64,000 nt of DNA from a phage, in sequence record OZ346219.1. The stretch is one strand, 5' to 3'. This document shows positions 2,628 to 48,287 of this stretch, piece after piece. Position 1 is the first letter of the stretch. Each line of letters starts with the position of its first letter. A program made the position numbers and the translations under genes. A model generated the notes under the pieces. That model was not told where the DNA came from and ran no database searches. It saw nothing but the letters and a program-made list of their open reading frames with translations.

Positions 2628-5564
2628 ATGGCAGATTTAAACAGAATCCAATTTAAACGTACTAGCACGAAAGGTCGTAAACCTGATGCTACTACAATGA
2701 CGCAAGGTGAACTTGCTATCAACCTGCATGATTATTATTTGTTTACAAAAAATGACTCTGGTTCTATTATTAACTTAAGCTGTCCTCCGATCTATGACCG
2801 CGATGTTATCATGGCTGGTAAAGTAAAGGGAGATTATTACATTTTAGGTAAAACCGCCAATTATCTTGAAGATCAGACAGCGAGAGACCTTAACCGTTTT
2901 GGGGCATTCCGTACCAACGGTCTAGATGGATTTTTAGATTTGACCTTGCATGTTCCTCATTCTGGTGGCGTTCAACATGGTCGAGGATTTACTTTCAATT
3001 ATGGACACACAGGACCGCGCGTAGAAACTTATGGATATAATGCACAGGGACAAAAAGCATTTAGTTATAAAATGTATCACGAAGGTGATAAACCAACTCC
3101 AGGAGAATTGAACGTCTATAGCAAACAAGAAGTAGATAGAATGTTTGTTAAGAACGTTAAACTTTCTACAGGTTCTGGTGATATCGTTGAAGGTTATTTT
3201 AAATTAGCGACTGCGATGATTCCACAAGACGGTCGTAGTGTATTTTTTCGTATTCATGGTGGTAACGGATATAACGTTACTGCATACGATCAAGTTGATA
3301 TTGTAGAAATTGTTATTCGCAGTGGAAATAATCGTCCTAAAGGTGTTAACGTTATTGCATACCGCCGAAATACAAACAAAGCATTTGATGTTTTGGCTGT
3401 TAATACTTCTGGTGATAACTATGATATCTACGTGAAATATCAGCGTTGCACTGATAACGTTATTGTTGAATTTGGTAAAAGTGTTGATGTTAATCTGGTA
3501 GTTCATGACGTTCCAGACTTTGTTGTTGATCGTCCTGTTGGCGATAATGTTATTGGCGGTCGCGCGGTAACTCTTTTCAACACCGAAAACAAACGAGGTG
3601 TGTTGAGTTTTGACGATAACACACAAAATAGTTATGATATTGTTCACTTGAGTAATGATAAGGGTACTGGACGAAAATATATTCGTAAATTCCGTAGTAA
3701 CTATAATGAAACGATCTGGCATGAGACGGTTCAAGGTAACGTATATCGTTTAGCTACTGGAACTACCGACGCAAACGAAGTTCTCAAAATTACCGACCGC
3801 ACGTTGCAAACTGGCAATGCTGTTTTTGATGGTGGTAATAATAATGTTCGTTTACATCGTAAAACCGGAAAAAGTAACTATCTGGAATATTATGATGCCC
3901 GTAACGGAGCAAATAAACGTCAGGGATATATTGGCTATGGTGATGCCACAACTAACCAGTTGTCAATTATTAACGAACTCTCCGAAGGTAATAACTCGAT
4001 TTTCTTTAACGAGACAGGTCAAATTTCACTTAACGTAGGAAAGACAAAAATTGTTCATAGCAACGGACAATATATTTCTACTAACGCCGATAACTATCGT
4101 ATAATTTATGGTAATTATGGAACATTCTGGCGAAATGATAGCGTTAAACTTTATCTCATGTCCACTGCCGAAAATGATAAATGGGGTACTTGGAATAGCT
4201 ATCGACCATTCATTTACAACCTAACCAACGGCGATGTTCAATTGGGTGGTGATGCCAATACAACCGTATTGACCTTAGAAGCAGCAAGCAAAATCTCAAG
4301 ATTTGGTGGTTCTGTTTATAGCGGTGGCGATTTTTATAATAAAGGCCAGTATATCATAATGGAAGCTGGGCGCGCTGGATCTCGCGATTATATTCGATTT
4401 AATCATTGGGGTGATAGTAATAATGCCCGTGATAACGTTTTGTACATAGAAGATAGTCAAGGCCGACATTTTAGCACAGAACGTGCGATGGGTACTGGTG
4501 CTCTTAAAGCATACTTCTTAGGCGATCTTGAAGTCGGTGGTAAGTTTACTTGGGGTAAAAATACAGCTACATCTAGCTTTAATATTCGTGCATGGGGTAA
4601 TGATTCCCGTAAACAAGTATTAGAATGCGCGGATGAAAGTGGGTGGCATTGGTACACACAACGAACGGGCGGTCCTGATACTTCTGCAATTGATTTTGCC
4701 ATCAATGGTACTGTTAGGCCTCAAGCAATTCACACTGGCGGTAATATCACGCTTAACGGTGCTGATATTGAATTTAAACGAAGCGGTAACAAGCATTTAT
4801 GGTTTAGAGATCCGAACGGCTTAGAGTTGGGTCTGTTGTACTGCGATGATGCTGGTGTTATGCGTATTCGTGGGGAGAAATCGACCGAAGTATGGAAATT
4901 CTCAGCAAAACAGATTCATCTGGAAACTGGTACTGCCGGAAATGGTGTAGGCTTGCTTCGTGGTGCTGTAGGTGGTGGCGCATGGACTCAATGGCGAGAT
5001 CGTGGCACTGGCTTGCAGGTTGATTGTCAGCAATCTGAAAACTCAGCGCATAACGTATGGAGAGCTACGCATCAAGGAAAATACCACATCGCGGCAATGG
5101 GTGTACACGTTCCTGGTGGTACTATCGGAAATGCTATGGTGCGTATTCACGTACACGATGCAACTTTTGACTTTAGCGCAACTGGTGATTTCCAAGCAGG
5201 TCGTAACGGTAATTTTAACGATGTGTACATTCGTTCTGATGCTCGCCTGAAAATCAATAAGGAAGAGTATAAAGAGAATGCTACCGATAAAGTTAATCGC
5301 TTGACGGTATACACCTATGACAAGGTTAAATCTTTAACTGACCGTACTGTCATTGCTCATGAAGTTGGTATTATTGCTCAGGATCTTGAGAAAGAATTGC
5401 CAGAAGCAGTAAAAACCTCGAAGATCGGCGACGGTGATACACCAGAAGAGATCTTAACAATTTCTAACTCTGCTGTCAACGCTCTTTTAATTAAGGCGTT
5501 TCAGGAAATGAGTGAAGAACTTAAAGCCGTTAAAGCTGAACTAGCGGAACTTAAAAAGAATTAA
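2628..5564 (+). CDS. gp37: long tail fibre distal subunit gp37 (978 aa) with C-terminal intramolecular chaperone (peptidase S74-like) domain
   Basis: N-terminus MADLNRIQFKRTSTKGRKPD...GELAINL matches T4 gp37. C-terminus ...SDARLKINKEEY...AHEVGIIAQDLEKELPEAV...LKAVKAELAELKKN fits the S-D-x-R-L-K autocleaving chaperone domain of endosialidase-type fibres and lacks the T4 HxH needle repeats. Confidence 0.85.
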   Translation: MADLNRIQFKRTSTKGRKPDATTMTQGELAINLHDYYLFTKNDSGSIINLSCPPIYDRDVIMAGKVKGDYYILGKTANYLEDQTARDLNRFGAFRTNGLDGFLDLTLHVPHSGGVQHGRGFTFNYGHTGPRVETYGYNAQGQKAFSYKMYHEGDKPTPGELNVYSKQEVDRMFVKNVKLSTGSGDIVEGYFKLATAMIPQDGRSVFFRIHGGNGYNVTAYDQVDIVEIVIRSGNNRPKGVNVIAYRRNTNKAFDVLAVNTSGDNYDIYVKYQRCTDNVIVEFGKSVDVNLVVHDVPDFVVDRPVGDNVIGGRAVTLFNTENKRGVLSFDDNTQNSYDIVHLSNDKGTGRKYIRKFRSNYNETIWHETVQGNVYRLATGTTDANEVLKITDRTLQTGNAVFDGGNNNVRLHRKTGKSNYLEYYDARNGANKRQGYIGYGDATTNQLSIINELSEGNNSIFFNETGQISLNVGKTKIVHSNGQYISTNADNYRIIYGNYGTFWRNDSVKLYLMSTAENDKWGTWNSYRPFIYNLTNGDVQLGGDANTTVLTLEAASKISRFGGSVYSGGDFYNKGQYIIMEAGRAGSRDYIRFNHWGDSNNARDNVLYIEDSQGRHFSTERAMGTGALKAYFLGDLEVGGKFTWGKNTATSSFNIRAWGNDSRKQVLECADESGWHWYTQRTGGPDTSAIDFAINGTVRPQAIHTGGNITLNGADIEFKRSGNKHLWFRDPNGLELGLLYCDDAGVMRIRGEKSTEVWKFSAKQIHLETGTAGNGVGLLRGAVGGGAWTQWRDRGTGLQVDCQQSENSAHNVWRATHQGKYHIAAMGVHVPGGTIGNAMVRIHVHDATFDFSATGDFQAGRNGNFNDVYIRSDARLKINKEEYKENATDKVNRLTVYTYDKVKSLTDRTVIAHEVGIIAQDLEKELPEAVKTSKIGDGDTPEEILTISNSAVNALLIKAFQEMSEELKAVKAELAELKKN

Positions 5565-41578: not shown

Positions 41579-42604
41579 CTAACTTTTTGCGCTATTTACC
41601 TCGGCTAAAAGTTCATCAGAAATACGCTTGACCGCCGCAAGTTCTTCCGGTTCTAGGTTTTGTTCTTCCAGATATTCATAGACCATCTGAATAGTGCTTT
41701 TAACTTCAATAACACCTGTTTCCTGTGATGCGCTACTCTCCAGCTTATGGACCACTTTTAGCTTGTGTACAACGGCCTCTAAAGCGCTTTCTAACTTAGT
41801 TAACCCATTATCAGCGACCGTTGCGATAAGACGCACACTAAGCCCCTTAAAGCGTTCTACATCGATTTTATCATCTGACGGGTAAGTGATACGCACATGA
41901 TAAGTTTTGTCATTCTGGATAAACTCCTTTTTGTGTGTATCGGTATCGAATACCCAAAAACCACGCGGATCGTTTTCGTCACCAGCCGTTAGTGTGTATG
42001 GTGTACCAATATACGTTACGTTACCGCCATCACTGATAGTATGAAAGTGACCAGAAAACACTTCACGGTATTTCTTGAGGAAGTCCGCGCTATAACCTTC
42101 TGATTTTAGACCTTTATAGAAATAGTAACCGGACAATTCCCAATGGCCTACACAATATTCGCTGAATGAGTTTTGAATAAACTCTAAAATCTCTGATTTA
42201 TTGTCATCACAAAACCACGGGAACAGATCAAATGATACACCATCAAAGGTGACTGTTTCCGGTTTATCGATAACCTTAATGCAATCATACTGGCTTAACA
42301 CTTCACGCGGTGCGTTAGGCTGGATCTTGTTTCGTTTAAACATATCATGGTTCCCGACCGTGATATAACAAGTAATTCCAGCCTCTTCCAGTAATGGGAT
42401 GACCTTAGTACGGTTAAATTTCATGGTTTCATGGGTAATTGCTTTTCGGCAATCAAACCAATCCCCTGTTTGAATCCATGTCTTAATATTATGCTCTTTG
42501 GAGTATTCAACCGCCTTCTTGATGGTATCAAGAATATACTCATGCACCCACGGATCATCGCCACCGATACCAGTATGCAGATCACCTAAAAGCAAAATTT
42601 TCAT
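41579..42604 (-). CDS. gp47: recombination endonuclease subunit gp47 (SbcD/Mre11-like)
   Basis: MKILLLGDLHTG...TWIQTGDWFD...VGNHD...FSGHFHT are calcineurin-like phosphoesterase motifs matching T4 gp47. Confidence 0.85.
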   Translation of the reverse strand: MKILLLGDLHTGIGGDDPWVHEYILDTIKKAVEYSKEHNIKTWIQTGDWFDCRKAITHETMKFNRTKVIPLLEEAGITCYITVGNHDMFKRNKIQPNAPREVLSQYDCIKVIDKPETVTFDGVSFDLFPWFCDDNKSEILEFIQNSFSEYCVGHWELSGYYFYKGLKSEGYSADFLKKYREVFSGHFHTISDGGNVTYIGTPYTLTAGDENDPRGFWVFDTDTHKKEFIQNDKTYHVRITYPSDDKIDVERFKGLSVRLIATVADNGLTKLESALEAVVHKLKVVHKLESSASQETGVIEVKSTIQMVYEYLEEQNLEPEELAAVKRISDELLAEVNSAKS

Positions 42605-42694
42605 AGTCTCTTCCTCTCTTCGTTTTCGATGCTCTCACTATATCACAGAAAAATAAAAAGGGAAACCCCTTTCAGAGTCTCCCCTATAAAGCCA

Positions 42695-42982
42695 TTACAG
42701 CATACTTAATACCGTTTGCCGTGTACTAATCCACATAGCAGAAAGCAGTTCTGGCGTGTGTGGCTGTTTGTAGATATCACGTAACTTTCCGATAGCGTAG
42801 ATATACGCATCACGGTTATCATCGATGATAGCTTGTTCAGCCCACCGCTTAAGGCGTGCAATCTCTCGCGAGTTCTTACGCAAGATCTTTTCCGCTTTCT
42901 TAGCGGCTTTAGCCTCTAGTTCTGCTTGTACTTTGTCTACTTCATTCACTGCAATCTGGTCATGCTGTTCATCGTAAGTCAT
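42695..42982 (-). CDS. hypothetical protein (95 aa)
   Basis: Track ORF between gp47 and gp55. Confidence 0.4.
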   Translation of the reverse strand: MTYDEQHDQIAVNEVDKVQAELEAKAAKKAEKILRKNSREIARLKRWAEQAIIDDNRDAYIYAIGKLRDIYKQPHTPELLSAMWISTRQTVLSML

Positions 42983-42983
42983 G

Positions 42984-43217
42984 TTATTTTCCTTCTGGGA
43001 TATAGTCGATGATTAAAGAAAATTCATCTTCTGATACATTATAGCTATGTGAGATTGTACCCGTAAAGACCTCAAGATCCGGTGATTTGATATTGCACGG
43101 ATCGATAATCACCGGAACGCCGCAATCTCTCAAAAATAATTTGGCGAAATACGGCACAAGGTCAGTTTCAAACTCTGCTTCTTCCAGCAAACGGGAAATG
43201 TTAATTTTCAATCTCAT
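42984..43217 (-). CDS. hypothetical protein (77 aa)
   Basis: Track ORF. Confidence 0.35.
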
Positions 43218-43734
43218 AAAATTGGTCCAAGCTAGGCAATTCCTCGGTCAATACATCTTCAACCTTTGGCGCTTTCGGTTTATTGACCGATTCCTCGTAG
43301 TTGTTGATTTTATCGTAAATGTCCTGTATGAATGCCTCATCAGCAATCTGGCACATATCAGCGTCGCGTTCGTCATATACATGATGCACAAAATATTTGT
43401 ATTTTGCGGCTGTCGCTGTTCTCTCTTTTTTAATGCGCTGTACAAAAGCATTAAAGCACGCTTGCGTGATGTAAGCATGAGGATTTTTATACTTTGTCTC
43501 GTCAAAATTAATCAAACCCTTGACCGCCGCTTCGATTCCGTCGTCGATCATTTCTTCGCGCCACGTTTGACTATAACCAGAAAAGTTAAAACGACGTGAT
43601 AGATTTTTAGAGATTTGCATAATTGCTAGGCCGATTTGATCGCTCATTGGAACTTGCCGACCTTCTGCTGCAATTTGTTGTTTCCAACGGCAAATTTCTT
43701 CGTAAAGCTCTTTATTGTTTACATAATCAGACAC
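43201..43734 (-). CDS. gp55: late-transcription sigma factor gp55
   Basis: [58 protein letters not shown] is near-identical to recalled T4 gp55. Confidence 0.85.
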
Positions 43735-43774
43735 TTCGCACCCTCGCTATTATTTAGGAAATAACCCTTTCGGG

Positions 43775-45244
43775 CTATTCCCCATTACCATTATACTTTC
43801 TTTGCTTAGTTATCCACACTCTAACCATCTCTACAGATTCGCCGTCAGACGGATCAAGAGTTTTTCCTTTTTTCTTCATGCGGTACTTAAATCCGTTAAA
43901 TCTTGCATTCTCTTGCTCGTTAAAGTCGAACATCTTTTTAAATGATTTTCGCCCTTTACGTTCACCACATTCTAGCGGAATCATTCGATCTGTTATTACA
44001 TTGGCATTAGGCAGAAACGTTTTTAGATAATCCACCAACGCCCAATCAGGAACATATAGATTAACATTCTCCTTGCTCTCGTTGTCTCTCAGGTTACAAC
44101 GCAAACATAATTGAAATGCTGGTTCCAGATAATCAGACACATGACGCGCTTTCAAAAACTCGTTTGTCGGGAGATCACAACTATTAGCAAGACCTTTTAA
44201 AATATCAATCTCCCATCGTTGAGGGTTAAAGCTGAACATCACAGCAACATTTTTATGATGAATGTAAGAGTTAAGACCATAAGACCCGTAAGGTATCCGC
44301 TCACCAATACCATTTGTACACGCTTCACGGTCCCGATTCACGGTATAAATGAAGTCATCGCCACATTCATTTTTAACCATATCAACAAGACGTTCAAAGG
44401 TATTGTTTGTTTCTGACTGGTGACGCGACCATCGTTCAGAGTCCGTCATAAGGATGATATTAACTCTATCTGTATTTTTATACTCTTTGAAATATAGTCT
44501 GGATTCTAGCGCACTCGGAACAAAATCGCAATTTGCATAGTATCGTAGATACTTCCCACTATATGTATCAAAGAGATTTGCACATGCTATCGTAACCTTT
44601 TTAAAGTCTCCCCACGTACCGTGTTTGTTATCGTTCAAGAAAACAATTTTCGACCCATTCTTCCGGTGTCCTTCGTTATGTTTTACCATAACGTTGATTT
44701 TCTTCTCTAATAACGCCTCATAAAGCCCTCTAAGAGAAGAATCGATCATATCAGTACCATCCTTCGCACTTTCTATCTTTTCTTTGATAGCGGCCTTCTC
44801 AGAGTCTTTTAGAACTAAGTTCTGTAGGCATTCCGATTCGTCGGCGATTGGTTCGCAATGCTTAGTGATAAGTTCAAGATTAGACTTAAACGGATACTCA
44901 TTAAATTCAACCAGTTGAGGAACTTCATCAATGTAAAGAGCATAATCACCAAACATTTTTGAACGTTCCATATTAGATAACGCTGTATGTGTAATGAATA
45001 TCACATCAGCACCATCTTTAACTGATTGCATTATCGACGCTTGCACTGTCTTAAGGCTTCTTAGTCTTGTGCTATCAATCAAGACAGCACGACCGCCCAT
45101 TCTTTTAAACTTATTGTAAGATTGTTCACTTAAAACACGAGATGGCGAAGCAATAACCGCTTTTTCTTTTGTCTCTAGGACGTGGGAAAGTATAGCATCA
45201 GTTTTCCCCGCCGCTGGCAATGCGATTAATGTTTCAATCTTCAT
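43775..45244 (-). CDS. uncharacterised P-loop NTPase (489 aa) with helicase-like motifs
   Basis: Walker A LPAAGKTD (res ~9-16), motif Ia-like IASPSRVLSEQ, Walker B-like YIDEV (~res 105); not matched to any T4 protein I can recall. Confidence 0.5.
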   Translation of the reverse strand: MKIETLIALPAAGKTDAILSHVLETKEKAVIASPSRVLSEQSYNKFKRMGGRAVLIDSTRLRSLKTVQASIMQSVKDGADVIFITHTALSNMERSKMFGDYALYIDEVPQLVEFNEYPFKSNLELITKHCEPIADESECLQNLVLKDSEKAAIKEKIESAKDGTDMIDSSLRGLYEALLEKKINVMVKHNEGHRKNGSKIVFLNDNKHGTWGDFKKVTIACANLFDTYSGKYLRYYANCDFVPSALESRLYFKEYKNTDRVNIILMTDSERWSRHQSETNNTFERLVDMVKNECGDDFIYTVNRDREACTNGIGERIPYGSYGLNSYIHHKNVAVMFSFNPQRWEIDILKGLANSCDLPTNEFLKARHVSDYLEPAFQLCLRCNLRDNESKENVNLYVPDWALVDYLKTFLPNANVITDRMIPLECGERKGRKSFKKMFDFNEQENARFNGFKYRMKKKGKTLDPSDGESVEMVRVWITKQRKYNGNGE

Positions 45245-45549
45245 TAGAAACCCTTACGTCGTTCTTTCTGGCATTTCTTGATCATTTTATCAGAAATTTC
45301 GCGCTTAGGTGCAATCTCTTTCACACCGAAAGCACTAATGCCAAATTCAGAGAGAATATATTCAACCAACAATTCACGCACACGCGCTTTACCGATATTC
45401 ACGCCGTTATTTTTCAGATATGTCTGGCCTTCGACTTGCATCAGATCTAAATCTGCGTCGGTAATATTGATTTCTTCCATGCGCCCAAATCGAGAATAAA
45501 CCATGTGTGCGATTGCATTGTGTACTAACATAATATATTCCTCACTCAA
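45244..45549 (-). CDS. hypothetical protein (101 aa), translationally coupled to the NTPase
   Basis: Its stop overlaps the NTPase start codon. Confidence 0.45.
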   Translation of the reverse strand: MSEEYIMLVHNAIAHMVYSRFGRMEEINITDADLDLMQVEGQTYLKNNGVNIGKARVRELLVEYILSEFGISAFGVKEIAPKREISDKMIKKCQKERRKGF

Positions 45550-45552
45550 GAA

Positions 45553-45711
45553 TTACTTAATGATACTTACTTTACCAGATCCATGACAATGAGCGCAACA
45601 CCCATCACCACGCAATCCTGTTCCGTTACAGTGTTTACACTTCTTCAACGGTAAAGCCATTATAGCAAATAAAGCAATAATGAATACCGAAACTAAATTC
45701 TCAATAATCAT
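45553..45711 (-). CDS. possible small membrane-anchored protein with two C-x-x-C-x-G-x-G zinc-finger motifs (52 aa); not in the ORF track
   Basis: Hand-translated: MIIENLVSVFIIALFAIMALPLKKCKHCNGTGLRGDGCCAHCHGSGKVSIIK; hydrophobic N-terminus then CKHCNGTG / CAHCHGSG. Confidence 0.35.
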   Translation of the reverse strand: MIIENLVSVFIIALFAIMALPLKKCKHCNGTGLRGDGCCAHCHGSGKVSIIK

Positions 45712-45970
45712 AAATCGCCCTCAGTTCTTTATAGCCTCCAATGTGCTCGTTGTCAATGAATATCTGGGGGTATACAAACCGGAGGCTCTTTGAGTTCAGC
45801 CTCCCCGCCAGTTCTTCAATCATATCACGGTCGGGAATAATGTCAACCCCGACCTGCTTGAATACTGGTTTAAGTGTATATGGAATACCCAGATCATCCA
45901 GTAGCTTCATTGCACTAATACAACCATAACAATGATAAGCCTCTTTCGGTATACCGTATATCTCGATCAT
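45701..45970 (-). CDS. nrdH: glutaredoxin-like protein (NrdH-like)
   Basis: 89 aa with CYGC redox motif near the N-terminus; position before nrdG as in T4. Confidence 0.55.
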   Translation of the reverse strand: MIEIYGIPKEAYHCYGCISAMKLLDDLGIPYTLKPVFKQVGVDIIPDRDMIEELAGRLNSKSLRFVYPQIFIDNEHIGGYKELRAIYDY

Positions 45971-46467
45971 TTCTCAGCCTTTAATCTTTCTAGTTCTTCT
46001 TCCAGTTCCTTGATCCGTTGGTCACGTTCAAAGTCACGCTGCAACTTAGTGGCGAATACTCGTTTAAACTGATTGTAATCATCGATTTTAAACACTTCTT
46101 CTTCGCCATAGCGACGCACAGAAACTTCGTAGTTATTGAAGAATTGTTGCATCATTGCTTCGGATGATAGTTCTGCTGATACTACTTTAAAATATTGATC
46201 TTCGGTAGGTGAAAACCAATTACAAGCATAAAGATAAACCTTTTCATTGTCTGGACACTGGTAAGCCTTACCATCGATTTCAATCACAGAAACATATTCA
46301 GGTATAGTAGATGAATCAATAGCTAAGACTTTAAACTGACGGTCCCCGATAAACTCGGAGATCACACGATTCGCATCACTGGTTGCAAAGGCTTTACGCG
46401 CTTGTTCGTTTTTCCACTGATAGGTCATGCCAACAACAAACATATTACCAACCTCGCTCTTTACCAA
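45967..46467 (-). CDS. hypothetical protein, divergent member of the W-E-V-G-K-T-Y paralog family
   Basis: N-terminus ...VVGMTYQWKNEQARKAF plus VSVIEIDGKAY and a coiled-coil C-terminus, similar to the three following ORFs. Confidence 0.45.
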   Translation of the reverse strand: MVKSEVGNMFVVGMTYQWKNEQARKAFATSDANRVISEFIGDRQFKVLAIDSSTIPEYVSVIEIDGKAYQCPDNEKVYLYACNWFSPTEDQYFKVVSAELSSEAMMQQFFNNYEVSVRRYGEEEVFKIDDYNQFKRVFATKLQRDFERDQRIKELEEELERLKAEK

Positions 46468-47269
46468 TCAAAAATTCAACTTCACGACGTTTAATGTCTT
46501 CTTGAAGGTCTTTAATCTTCTGGCGATCTTGCATTATTTCGTCCATCTTGTCAAGTGCTGCGATGAAATCATCGAAACGTTCAAAGGTTTTACCTTCATT
46601 TGCTTCGCTAAATTTAACCATTGTCAGGCCATAACGACTACTAAACAGACGTTTCAACTGTCCAACGATCTTAGAATCAGTGGTTATAACTTCCAATTCT
46701 TCTACTTCACGAAAGAATTTTCTATCAGAATCAATAAACCAGCTAGTTCCTTTATGGTCGCTATCTTCGGTTGCACTCATTAGAGTATGGTCTTTACCAT
46801 CAATTTCAATTACATTAACTTGCCCACATAGACTAACATTTTTAACAGTAAAAGGTCTATAATTTATTGCTCGTGCAATAACATAATTAAGGTTAGATAC
46901 GTTTTCAGCATAATGACAGAAGTCGGTCATAGCATTCGCATCTTTCCAAGTATAAGTTTTACCAACTTCCCATTTCTGGGGAACTTCTTCAACTTCACGA
47001 AAGAATTTTCGATCGAATGGACTAAAGAAATATGTTGCAGTCCAAATGTCTTTTCCTGTAGCAGTTTTCGCCGTATGATAAACACCGTCTAGCTCTATTG
47101 CATTAATCCAACCGTTACCCTCGATCTCGATGATGGTAAATGGCTTGTCACCAATAGCTGCACTAATATCGCTGTTAAGTGGAGAAAGAACACCTTCTCC
47201 GTTAGTAATAAACTCAGTTTTAGAGTTTTCATCTTTCCAAGTGTAAGTTTTACCAATTTCCCATTTCAT
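46445..47269 (-). CDS. hypothetical protein with internally duplicated W-E-(I/V)-G-K-T-Y-T-W-K-D domain (274 aa)
   Basis: MKWEIGKTYTWKDENSKTEF... and ...QKWEVGKTYTWKDANAMTDF..., each followed by PFT(I/V), IEIDG and RKFFREVEE. Confidence 0.5.
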   Translation of the reverse strand: MKWEIGKTYTWKDENSKTEFITNGEGVLSPLNSDISAAIGDKPFTIIEIEGNGWINAIELDGVYHTAKTATGKDIWTATYFFSPFDRKFFREVEEVPQKWEVGKTYTWKDANAMTDFCHYAENVSNLNYVIARAINYRPFTVKNVSLCGQVNVIEIDGKDHTLMSATEDSDHKGTSWFIDSDRKFFREVEELEVITTDSKIVGQLKRLFSSRYGLTMVKFSEANEGKTFERFDDFIAALDKMDEIMQDRQKIKDLQEDIKRREVEFLIGKERGW

Positions 47270-47281
47270 AATATATTCCCC

Positions 47282-47761
47282 TTAACCGATTTTATCAAGT
47301 TCGTTTAATGCTTTCTCTGCTTCCGGTATAGCTTGCACCCTTTCCGGCATTTTGTCAAGAAAATCTTTCAACTCTTCAAAACTGGAGATATGACGCAAGG
47401 CATTAGCACCGATAGCCGCATGTGATTTGCATTCAAAGCGAATTTTATAATTATCCATAGCCAATTTGAGAAGATCAATTAGTTTAGATTCTTCTGGAAT
47501 AATAATTTCTTCAAATCTGCTACGGTCGTGACACAGAAACCAACAATATAGACCTACATCGGTTGAACTCATATAAGTTCCATCATGAAGATATACAGAT
47601 CGCACGTATCCTTTTTTCGCATCAACCGACGCAACTTTAAACGGTAATCTCAGATATTTCAAATAATCAACATCATACCATTTAAAAAATTGTTTTGCAT
47701 CTTTTACATCTTTCCACGCATAGGTCTTACCAACTTCCCATTTCATAATATCATCTCTCAT
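47282..47761 (-). CDS. hypothetical protein, W-E-V-G-K-T-Y family paralog (159 aa)
   Basis: MKWEVGKTYAWKDVKDAKQFF at the N-terminus. Confidence 0.5.
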   Translation of the reverse strand: MRDDIMKWEVGKTYAWKDVKDAKQFFKWYDVDYLKYLRLPFKVASVDAKKGYVRSVYLHDGTYMSSTDVGLYCWFLCHDRSRFEEIIIPEESKLIDLLKLAMDNYKIRFECKSHAAIGANALRHISSFEELKDFLDKMPERVQAIPEAEKALNELDKIG

Positions 47762-48287
47762 TTTTGATACGTGATTCTAATTGGATCATACGGTCGCGCG
47801 TTTGCTTATATTCTCGGATAGCACCGATCCGGCTAGGCATACCATCCAGTACGCTCTTAATACCTTCTAGGGTAGTGATTTTAGCAATGCTATTATGTAA
47901 CCCCATCTTATCGATCAACTGAATGTCGTAGGCTTCCATAAGCAGACCCAGGAGTTCTAAAGTTAGGTCTTCTTCTTTTTCTTCCGATTCTGGAATCTTA
48001 GGTTCAATAGTAACTTCGGTAAAGAAACGACGCTCACCAGACCAAAACCACACACCGGAACAGCCAATAGGGGATTCTTTTAACGTCATAGAGTCGTAAC
48101 CACTTCCGATAATAGTAATTTCTCTAACATCACCATCATCGTCAATGTCTTCTACCATAAACGGGCGACCAGCCAACAGGTCCACAATACATCTGTTAAT
48201 AGACGACGAAAATTTAGTCAGTTCGGCTTTCGACGCTTCACATTCAATCTTGTAAGTTTTACCAACTTCCCATTCCATAATAATCAC
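47751..48287 (-). CDS. hypothetical protein, W-E-V-G-K-T-Y family paralog (178 aa)
   Basis: MEWEVGKTYKIECEASKAEL at the N-terminus; RRFFTEV motif. Confidence 0.5.
   Translation of the reverse strand: MIIMEWEVGKTYKIECEASKAELTKFSSSINRCIVDLLAGRPFMVEDIDDDGDVREITIIGSGYDSMTLKESPIGCSGVWFWSGERRFFTEVTIEPKIPESEEKEEDLTLELLGLLMEAYDIQLIDKMGLHNSIAKITTLEGIKSVLDGMPSRIGAIREYKQTRDRMIQLESRIKNER

Follow-up and report, generated by a model that had tools for sequence, protein, structure and literature searches.

A helicase-like SF2 ATPase gene, a 55.2 orthologue and a predicted membrane zinc-knuckle gene between nrdH and gene 55 of an RB49-like phage

The interval between nrdH and gene 55 in the window (the whole stretch of 64,000 nucleotides of phage DNA analysed) probably holds three independent early-region genes, which encode an SF2 translocase or helicase of 489 aa, an orthologue of T4 gp55.2, and a 52-aa membrane zinc-knuckle protein (Table 1). 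The 489-aa product would be an ATP-driven nucleic-acid translocase or helicase with two RecA-like motors, an inserted accessory domain and a basic C-terminal tail. It may act as an accessory DNA helicase on phage replication or recombination intermediates, working alongside gp41, Dda and UvsW and not in their place.

The phage was RB49-like and belonged to Krischvirus (99.9% to phage kaaroe and 98.9% to RB49). The three open reading frames (ORFs) were found where an earlier note on this DNA had placed them, all on the minus strand, and all scored above chance (PHROG 2467, E 3e-175; DUF7570, 9e-29; PHROG 3931, 4e-10). The 3' end of nrdH shared 11 nt with the 52-aa ORF, which was preceded by a GAGGG Shine-Dalgarno sequence. 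The stop of the middle ORF and the start of the 489-aa ORF overlapped by 1 base (TAATG), with AAGGG 6 nt 5' of the start codon of the latter. Such head-to-tail packing is usual for genomes of this kind. The locus had been equated with the place of alpha-gt and the 55.x ORFs of T4; its T4 counterpart was the 55.1-55.6 interval only, as alpha-gt lay on the opposite side of gene 55. A role of the helicase-like gene as a stand-in for alpha-gt or hmC modification was rejected on account of this position and because Erwinia phage IT22 had both genes. The idea of T4 gp55.1 as a remnant of the helicase found no support, as gp55.1 resembled none of the loci compared.

Table 1. Features in and around the nrdH-gene 55 interval of the window
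Feature	Coordinates	Strand	Remarks
Gene 55 (late sigma factor), downstream neighbour and synteny anchor	43201..43734	-	PHROG 234, E 4e-63; RB49 annotation
Hairpin between helicase-like gene and gene 55	43755..43784	-	13 bp, GAAA loop
489-aa SF2 helicase-like ATPase (RB49ORF044c; PHROG 2467)	43775..45244	-	ATG start
gp55.2 orthologue, 95 aa (by sequence)	45244..45531	-	ATG start; open frame reaches TTG 45549 (101 aa)
101-aa open frame (longest version of middle ORF)	45244-45549	-	TTG start
52-aa protein (RB49ORF046c; PHROG 3931)	45553..45711	-	ATG start; predicted TM helix and zinc knuckle pair
nrdH glutaredoxin, upstream neighbour	45701..45970	-	Pfam Glutaredoxin, PHROG 22; annotation
Sigma-70-like promoter match inside nrdH	45819..45846	-	TTGACA, 16-nt spacer, TG-TATGAT; 11/12; consensus match only

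The 489-aa protein contained the motifs quoted in the earlier note, namely LPAAGKTD (Walker A; residues 9-16), IASPSRVLSEQ (Ia-like; 31-41) and YIDEV (Walker B; 104-108), and its description as helicase-like held. The remark that nothing further could be matched did not hold, as SF2 motifs III (TIAxAN), V (HGLN) and VI (QxxxRxxxR) and a second RecA-like domain were also present. Motifs I, Ia, II, III, V and VI were conserved across 29 homologues (PAAGKT, SxSRxLSxQS, YIDEVP, TIAxAN, HGLN and FQLCxRxNxR, including the arginine fingers). Residues K14, D106, E107, G323, N325, Q378, R382 and R386 were invariant in 185 representatives at <=50% identity, and also in 82 relatives; invariance of these ATP-site and motif residues in the representatives argues for what would be a working ATPase. 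The protein passed the Pfam DEAD model (27.3 bits; cut-off 26), and its AF2 model (pLDDT 87.9) contained two tandem RecA-like domains. By its motifs and its two RecA-like domains it is a helicase-like member of SF2.

Foldseek with the AF2 model, a comparison that the earlier note had called for, gave XPD, DinG or CasDinG as all of its best 13 matches, and two independent methods of structure comparison both put XPD-family structures clearly at the top. The predicted structure had an Arch-like insertion (residues ~110-215, ~105 aa) between motifs II and III, and the protein ended in a basic two-helix C-terminal tail (~430-489). Motif Ia was followed by motif II with no Fe-S domain inserted, and residues 43-102 were free of cysteine; C130 and C380 were the only invariant cysteines among close homologues, and none was invariant family-wide. 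The Pfam models DEAD_2 and Helicase_C_2 did not match the 489-aa protein and were not among the matches listed for the 82 relatives (the 25 families matched by most of them). Sequence searches of the PDB gave no match with the single protein or with the 29-sequence profile, and generic RecA1 domains only with the 82-sequence profile (best PriA, DDX, Mfd and UvrB; E about 1e-6). The likeness to XPD therefore rests on predicted structure, because the sequence matched the generic SF2 RecA1 domain only and not the XPD/DinG Pfam models. NCBIfam and PADLOC gave no informative match.

The family of the 489-aa protein was large (1322 cluster representatives), virus-associated and experimentally uncharacterised. 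A homologous C-terminal module of ~350 aa was present in 66 of 189 family proteins. In 11 of 16 members this module matched 'DNA primase' PHROGs (best E 2e-9), and in two of the 16 it matched PriCT_1. Ten of 82 short forms had an HTH_23-type domain at the C-terminal end, and two of 82 relatives matched Herpes_ori_bp weakly (PF02399; E 1.4e-3), with no such match for the window protein. The T4-like members had neither the primase module nor a detectable HTH in the C-terminal tail, in a search in which positive controls from distant relatives scored; functions inferred from the fused relatives may thus not carry over to them. The neighbours of the gene in the distant relatives PH357, Atu_ph07, SCTP-2 and one metagenome contig were unannotated.

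A reading in which the SF2 motor has no DNA-unwinding activity, and is a dsDNA translocase or protein-displacing remodeller of the Snf2, Mfd or PriA kind or else acts on early transcripts as an RNA helicase, was considered unlikely. The 489-aa protein lacked the signatures of DEAD-box proteins (Q motif, DEAD, SAT, HRxGRxGR) and had DEVP, xAN and QxxxRxxxR instead, the XPD family ranked first in both structural comparisons, and the primase fusions of relatives imply a DNA-replication context. The preferred reading of an accessory DNA helicase takes DNA rather than RNA as the probable substrate, and replication or recombination as the probable role. As a replacement for Dda the protein was rejected, since Krischviruses also carry Dda (46% identity).

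The helicase-like gene was widely conserved in phages, with hosts that included Escherichia, Aeromonas, Proteus, Serratia, Erwinia and Cronobacter, and it lay directly upstream of gene 55 in Krischvirus, Pseudotevenvirus, Tulanevirus, Bragavirus, Roskildevirus and Cinqassovirus, with the exception of RB16, in which the downstream part was rearranged. It occurred in at least 244 T4-type phage records, the 55.2 family in 1093 phage records and the 52-aa family in 109, and these different evolutionary distributions do not agree with the single three-gene module that the earlier note had proposed. That the three genes would form one anti-defence or host-manipulation system was judged highly improbable, and no evidence for it was found. 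Their distributions were unrelated, and the 52-aa gene was missing at the locus outside Krischvirus. The helicase kept its position in genera whose hosts differ (Escherichia, Aeromonas, Proteus, Erwinia, Serratia and others), which a phage-internal DNA function would fit better than a host-specific countermeasure, and relatives were fused to primase modules. PADLOC, whose library excludes anti-defence genes, gave a chance-level match for the helicase (E 0.009, 13.6 bits), and neither of the small proteins had a match.

The middle gene had a recognisable T4 counterpart, which the earlier note had not seen: its 95-aa product was 42% identical to T4 gp55.2 over the whole length (E 3e-20) and matched DUF7570 (99.8 bits; cut-off 27), and the same gene is annotated as 55.2 in RB49, JSE, Phi1 and RB16. 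By sequence, it is an orthologue of T4 gp55.2. The open frame of 101 aa described earlier does run from TTG 45549, but the start is most likely ATG 45531 (95 aa), because this codon was preceded by a GAGG Shine-Dalgarno sequence 8 nt upstream, the TTG had none, and RB49 is annotated in this way. The gene lay between nrdH and gene 55 in T4, RB49, RB16, phage 25, Pm5461, IT22 and Ah1. T4 gp55.2 binds DNA and inhibits E. coli topoisomerase I (PMC4396842), and by homology the 95-aa protein may bind DNA and damp host topoisomerase I. The two products share the DUF7570 family and the position between nrdH and gene 55; the window product was 13 residues shorter at the C-terminus, and DNA binding and topoisomerase I inhibition have been shown for the T4 protein only.

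A functional pair of gp55.2 and helicase was held to be quite unlikely. Blocking of host topoisomerase I by gp55.2 would raise negative supercoiling or the load of R-loops, and an XPD/DinG-like helicase would exploit or resolve the R-loops or unwound regions on phage DNA, for example in origin firing or in clearing transcription-replication conflicts. In four of six genera sampled (the window, RB16, Pm5461 and Ah1) the two genes were direct neighbours whose stop and start overlapped, and 55.2 was within about 1.5 kb of the helicase in all six helicase-positive loci. The action of T4 gp55.2 on DNA topology (PMC4396842) also speaks for the pair, and so does the action of E. coli DinG on R-loops and at transcription-replication conflicts (PMC2770101). 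However, T4 and about 850 further records had 55.2 but no helicase, gp55.2 works alone in T4, and the non-T4-like relative PH357 had no 55.2 nearby. Two ORFs lay between 55.2 and the helicase in phage 25 and five in IT22. The coupling noted earlier between the 489-aa and the middle ORF is real as a TAATG overlap, but the helicase start overlaps any ORF lying upstream, a different one in phage 25 and IT22, and shows no specificity for 55.2. In Aeromonas phage 31, the gene preceding the helicase has been labelled 'DprA-like', a label that was set aside, as the corresponding gene of phage 25 was blank in Pfam. A bolder version was very improbable, in which an Fe-S-less, XPD/DinG-shaped helicase and gp55.2 would be a DNA-topology unit of two parts that is ancestral in T4-like phages. 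Negative supercoils and R-loops would build up on phage DNA as gp55.2 blocks host Topo I, the helicase, guided by its basic tail, would use or clear them to start or protect replication, and in T-even phages the helicase would have been lost, with 55.1 in its place.

As regards the third of the independent genes, the membrane anchor and the two C-x-x-C-x-G-x-G boxes described earlier for the 52-aa protein were both recovered. Its N-terminus was strongly hydrophobic (Kyte-Doolittle, 19-residue mean >2.0), and the boxes were CKHCNGTG and CAHCHGSG (pattern KKCxxCNGxG ... CCxxCxGSGK). The product is predicted to be a membrane-anchored peptide with one zinc knuckle pair after an N-terminal TM helix. 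The central domain of DnaJ has four CxxCxGxG repeats and two zinc centres; the 52-aa protein resembled DnaJ and anti-TRAP in its two boxes, which are enough for one zinc centre, and matched both models weakly (PF00684, DnaJ: 14.6 bits, cut-off 32.7, two repeats only), and it differed from DnaJ in its single zinc centre, its TM helix and its lack of a J domain. Homologues occurred in Felix-O1-like phages, with that of the Felixounavirus Bas63 45% identical, of the same layout and upstream of rIIA. The gene was absent from the corresponding locus in RB16, Pm5461, Ah1, phage 25 and IT22 (five other genera), and at the nrdH-gene 55 locus it appears to be a genus-specific insertion of Krischvirus only. 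The two findings that the earlier note had named as telling against its reading, clear T4 homology at the locus and small ORFs not conserved in relatives, were both obtained.

The stem-loop said to separate the three genes from gene 55 at ~43737-43770 does exist, but lies at 43755-43784 and covers the stop codon of the 489-aa ORF (dG -20.3 kcal/mol, z -2.8 by fold computation). It is no canonical intrinsic terminator, since it overlaps this stop codon and has no U-tract, and it was not listed by a terminator scan. Four other genera had hairpins at a similar place that were unrelated to it. An Rfam scan of 42500-46500 gave no match above noise. The promoter match inside nrdH is a candidate early promoter of the three genes; a single site is weak evidence, as the consensus scan found 23 sites against 16.3 expected. 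The surroundings of the locus had no TATAAATA late promoters. Early expression of the three genes is suggested by the consensus promoter matches and this absence of nearby late promoters only.

T4-like phages are the reference system for replication and recombination, and gp41, Dda and UvsW are, to our knowledge, taken to be their full set of helicases. A fourth helicase-like motor, with an apparently intact ATPase site, would be carried by at least 244 of the T4-type phages sequenced. The role of a family with more than 1300 clusters, often primase-fused, could add to the T4 model a replication or repair step that it lacks, and the predicted fold could explain how a motor of XPD shape does without an Fe-S wedge. 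At present the result is a better annotation and no new kind of system, and a weak DEAD-box match has been on record since 2006: a table of that year gave RB49ORF044c a Pfam DEAD match with E 0.069 (PMC1524935), the sole mention of this ORF found in the literature.

One study predicted a new helicase family that is specific to viruses and plasmids and fused to AEP primases, with its closest homologues in some T4-like phages (PMC5862659). These helicases (pVOG1685/pVOG9714; Kazlauskas et al. 2018, PMC5862659) resemble the present family by description only, through the primase-like module in 66 of 189 relatives, and differ in order, with primase then helicase there and helicase then primase here. 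Some relatives with a C-terminal DNA-binding HTH had a layout like that of UL9, the herpesvirus origin-binding helicase. The 489-aa window protein differed from the UL9 and pVOG helicases in having no primase module, no detectable HTH and no Herpes_ori_bp match.

Helicases of the XPD/Rad3/DinG type (SF2B) translocate 5'-to-3' on ssDNA; in XPD/DinG the Arch domain separates motifs II and III of motor domain 1, and the Fe-S (or pseudo-Fe-S) domain, with four cysteines, lies between Ia and II. These were the closest structural neighbours of the 489-aa model, which has its predicted insertion at the place of the Arch domain. In contrast to them, the 489-aa protein had no Fe-S or pseudo-Fe-S domain, a much shorter insertion (~105 aa), the motif variants DEVP, xAN, HGLN and QxxxRxxxR, an extra basic C-terminal tail, and no sequence membership in DEAD_2 or Helicase_C_2. 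Relatives without Fe-S are known in the XPD/Rad3/DinG family, namely CasDinG and 'short DinG' (sDinG) (PMC11981726), and from sDinG the 489-aa protein differed in that its ATP-site residues were intact.

Megablast assigned the window to the RB49 group (genus Krischvirus, Straboviridae). Over 3.5 kb spanning the locus, identity was 99.9% to kaaroe and 98.9% to RB49, with full coverage by 59 phage records. All three minus-strand ORFs of an earlier note were found where it had placed them, together with the motifs it quoted. A good Shine-Dalgarno preceded each ORF, and one base was shared by the TAA of the middle ORF and the ATG of the 489-aa ORF. The locus had been set against T4 alpha-gt, mistakenly: in T4 that gene lies beyond gene 55, on the opposite side, so that the locus is equivalent only to the T4 55.1-55.6 interval.

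The 489-aa protein (RB49ORF044c) was rightly called helicase-like, and motifs that the earlier note could not assign were also present. When 29 homologues (32-74% identity) were aligned, Walker A, Ia and Walker B were joined by motifs Ib (VIFITHxAL), III (TIAxAN), V (HGLN) and VI (FQLCxRxNxR). Relatives numbered 1322 when 1.84 billion cluster representatives were searched with a profile. Residues K14, D106, E107, G323, N325, Q378, R382 and R386 were invariant in 185 relatives, and again in 82 short forms of the family, as would be expected if the ATPase works. On its motifs, the protein is a complete SF2 motor.

The closest structure matches were Finegoldia DinG (18.3; 349), XPD (18.0; 323), Type IV CRISPR CasDinG (17.5; 330), Rad3 (17.4; 332) and Xpd4 (17.0; 316), followed by Chd1 (14.6; 263) as the first non-XPD match. 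Foldseek ranks 1-13 for the model were XPD, DinG or CasDinG throughout. An insertion of ~105 residues separated motifs II and III, where XPD/DinG have their Arch domain; XPD/DinG also have an Fe-S domain between motifs Ia and II, whereas the 489-aa protein had neither insertion nor cysteine there. DEAD_2 and Helicase_C_2 did not match the protein, nor were they among the Pfam matches listed for 82 relatives, and an 82-sequence profile found only generic RecA1 domains in the PDB (PriA, DDX, Mfd, UvrB; E about 1e-6). By sequence, the protein is not a DinG. It is therefore classed here as an SF2 helicase of a separate family, XPD/DinG-like in its predicted build and lacking the Fe-S domain.

Homologues occurred in 244 phage records (tblastn), with at least 99% identity in Krischvirus and 35-42% in T4-type phages of Aeromonas, Cronobacter, Enterobacter, Citrobacter, Klebsiella, Serratia, Proteus, Erwinia and others. 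T4 lacked the helicase gene and had the small gene 55.1 in its position. The helicase gene position was common to the six genera compared: nrdH, 52-aa ORF, 55.2, helicase, 55 in the window and RB49 (Krischvirus); nrdH, 55.2, helicase, rearranged downstream, in RB16 (Pseudotevenvirus); glutaredoxin, 55.2, helicase, 55 in Pm5461 (Bragavirus); nrdH, one ORF, 55.2, helicase, 55 in Ah1 (Cinqassovirus); 55.2, two ORFs, helicase, 55 in phage 25 (Tulanevirus); and 55.2, five ORFs, helicase, 55 in IT22 (Roskildevirus). The helicase start overlapped the 3' end of any ORF directly upstream. The proposed translational coupling thus held as a stop/start overlap but not as a specific link to 55.2, and reflects ordinary T4-style gene packing; that the helicase and gp55.2, despite their overlap here, form a functional pair is unlikely. 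Substitution for alpha-gt or for Dda was ruled out, as IT22 also carries alpha-gt and Krischviruses also encode Dda; the helicase gene stands in for neither.

ATG 45531 is the most likely start of the middle ORF, which would then encode 95, not 101, aa; GAGG sits 8 nt 5' of this ATG, the RB49 annotation uses the same start, and TTG 45549 had no Shine-Dalgarno upstream. The earlier note saw no recognisable T4 function in the module, yet this gene is the orthologue of T4 55.2: its product matched Pfam DUF7570 (99.8 bits, cut-off 27) and, over its full length, T4 gp55.2 (42% identity, E 3e-20). It is annotated '55.2' in RB49, JSE, Phi1, RB16 and phage 25, and homologues occurred in 1093 phage records, T2 and T4-type phages among them (tblastn). 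The 52-aa protein had the strongly hydrophobic N-terminus, taken earlier for a membrane anchor, and the one pair of CxxCxGxG boxes described; it matched PHROG 3931 (E 4e-10) and scored far below the cut-off of the DnaJ zinc-finger model. Among T4-type phages its gene was restricted to Krischvirus; homologues in Felix-O1-like phages (42-45% identity) shared the layout but lay elsewhere, upstream of rIIA. The gene is genuine but belongs to no conserved trio. The observations behind the proposed three-gene anti-defence module therefore stood, and its interpretation in part, but not the three-gene system, nor the anti-defence role, for which a PADLOC search, with models covering defence rather than anti-defence genes, gave no supporting evidence.

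A mutually homologous C-terminal extension of ~350 aa with a DxD-type motif was present in 66 of 189 helicase-family proteins. Of 16 members, 11 matched 'DNA primase' PHROGs (best E 2e-9) and two matched Pfam PriCT_1; a 'replicative helicase-primase' PHROG was hit once. HTH_23 matched 10 of the 82 short forms, and related HTH models others, in the C-terminal tail in both short forms scanned for location. T4-like tails were equivalent in position, basic and helical, and the same scan found no HTH in them. Primase and HTH fusions speak for a role in the initiation of DNA replication or in fork metabolism, not in RNA work or host manipulation. On the preferred reading, the 489-aa protein would be an accessory DNA helicase acting on replication or recombination intermediates; its polarity would be 5'-to-3' if XPD-like and 3'-to-5' if UL9-like.

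About one third of the family, among the metagenomic relatives P0043-P0188, were ~750-890-aa proteins with an N-terminal SF2 helicase and a C-terminal primase-like plus PriCT-1 module, whereas primase-helicases usually have the two parts the other way round. P0126 and P0151 had unexplained N-terminal extensions of 370-420 aa in place of that module.

The stem-loop before gene 55 exists, but not at ~43737-43770 as first placed; it had 13 bp, a GAAA loop, dG -20.3 and no U-tract. In each of the five genera folded, a stable hairpin separated the helicase-like gene from gene 55; these hairpins were unrelated in sequence, with promoter-like AT-rich sequence sometimes 3', sometimes 5' of them; the hairpin is annotated as a terminator in Pm5461 and Muldoon, and the T4 55.1-55 spacer had a weak hairpin only. 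Two sigma-70-type near-consensus matches are possible early promoters within coding sequence. Transcription of the unit that contains gene 55 and the three genes of the locus probably stops at the terminator-like hairpin between a-gt.4 and gene 47. RB49ORF048c-051c form, on their repeats, a tandem paralogue array with five copies of a ~90-aa domain starting (M)KWEVGKTYxWKD, two of them in the 274-aa gene; the 166-aa product weakly matched 'goF mRNA metabolism modulator' PHROGs. RB49ORF040c, between gene 47 and a-gt.4 in RB49, was cleanly missing from the window phage, which looks like presence/absence polymorphism of a mobile homing-endonuclease gene.

Coordinates of features in the window and comparison loci
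Feature	Sequence	Strand	Position
489-aa ORF	window	minus	43775-45244
Middle ORF (55.2), as first drawn	window	minus	45244-45549
52-aa ORF	window	minus	45553-45711
Spacer hairpin	window		43755-43784
Spacer hairpin	L005		~3925-3947
Spacer hairpin	L006		~4056-4076
Spacer hairpin	L007		~4000-4019
Spacer hairpin	L008		~3955-3992
Sigma-70-type match in nrdH (TTGACA, 16-nt spacer, TG-TATGAT)	window	minus	45819-45846
Sigma-70-type match in 52-aa ORF (TTGTCA, 18-nt spacer, TATCAT)	window	minus	45560-45589
Strong intrinsic-terminator-like hairpin with U-tract	window	minus	42654-42685
RB49ORF048c-051c, adjacent (166, 274, 159, 178 aa)	window	minus	45967-48287
HNH/AP2 endonuclease gene RB49ORF040c	L001 (RB49)		2037-2601
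Site lacking RB49ORF040c	window		42601-42605

The function of gp55.2 in T4 is already known (DNA binding, block of relaxation by E. coli topoisomerase I, measurable fitness gain; PMC4396842), as is the weak DEAD match of RB49ORF044c, listed in 2006 (PMC1524935). Still noteworthy is an orphan helicase family, found widely among T4-type phages, whose gene keeps its place beside gene 55. Kazlauskas et al. (PMC5862659) had already noted fusions of AEP primases with a remote SF2-like helicase; that helicase probably belongs to the same family, but the domain order differs. CasDinG and 'sDinG' (review, PMC11981726) are Fe-S-less and comparable in plan to the 489-aa protein, which, unlike 'sDinG', has an intact ATP site.
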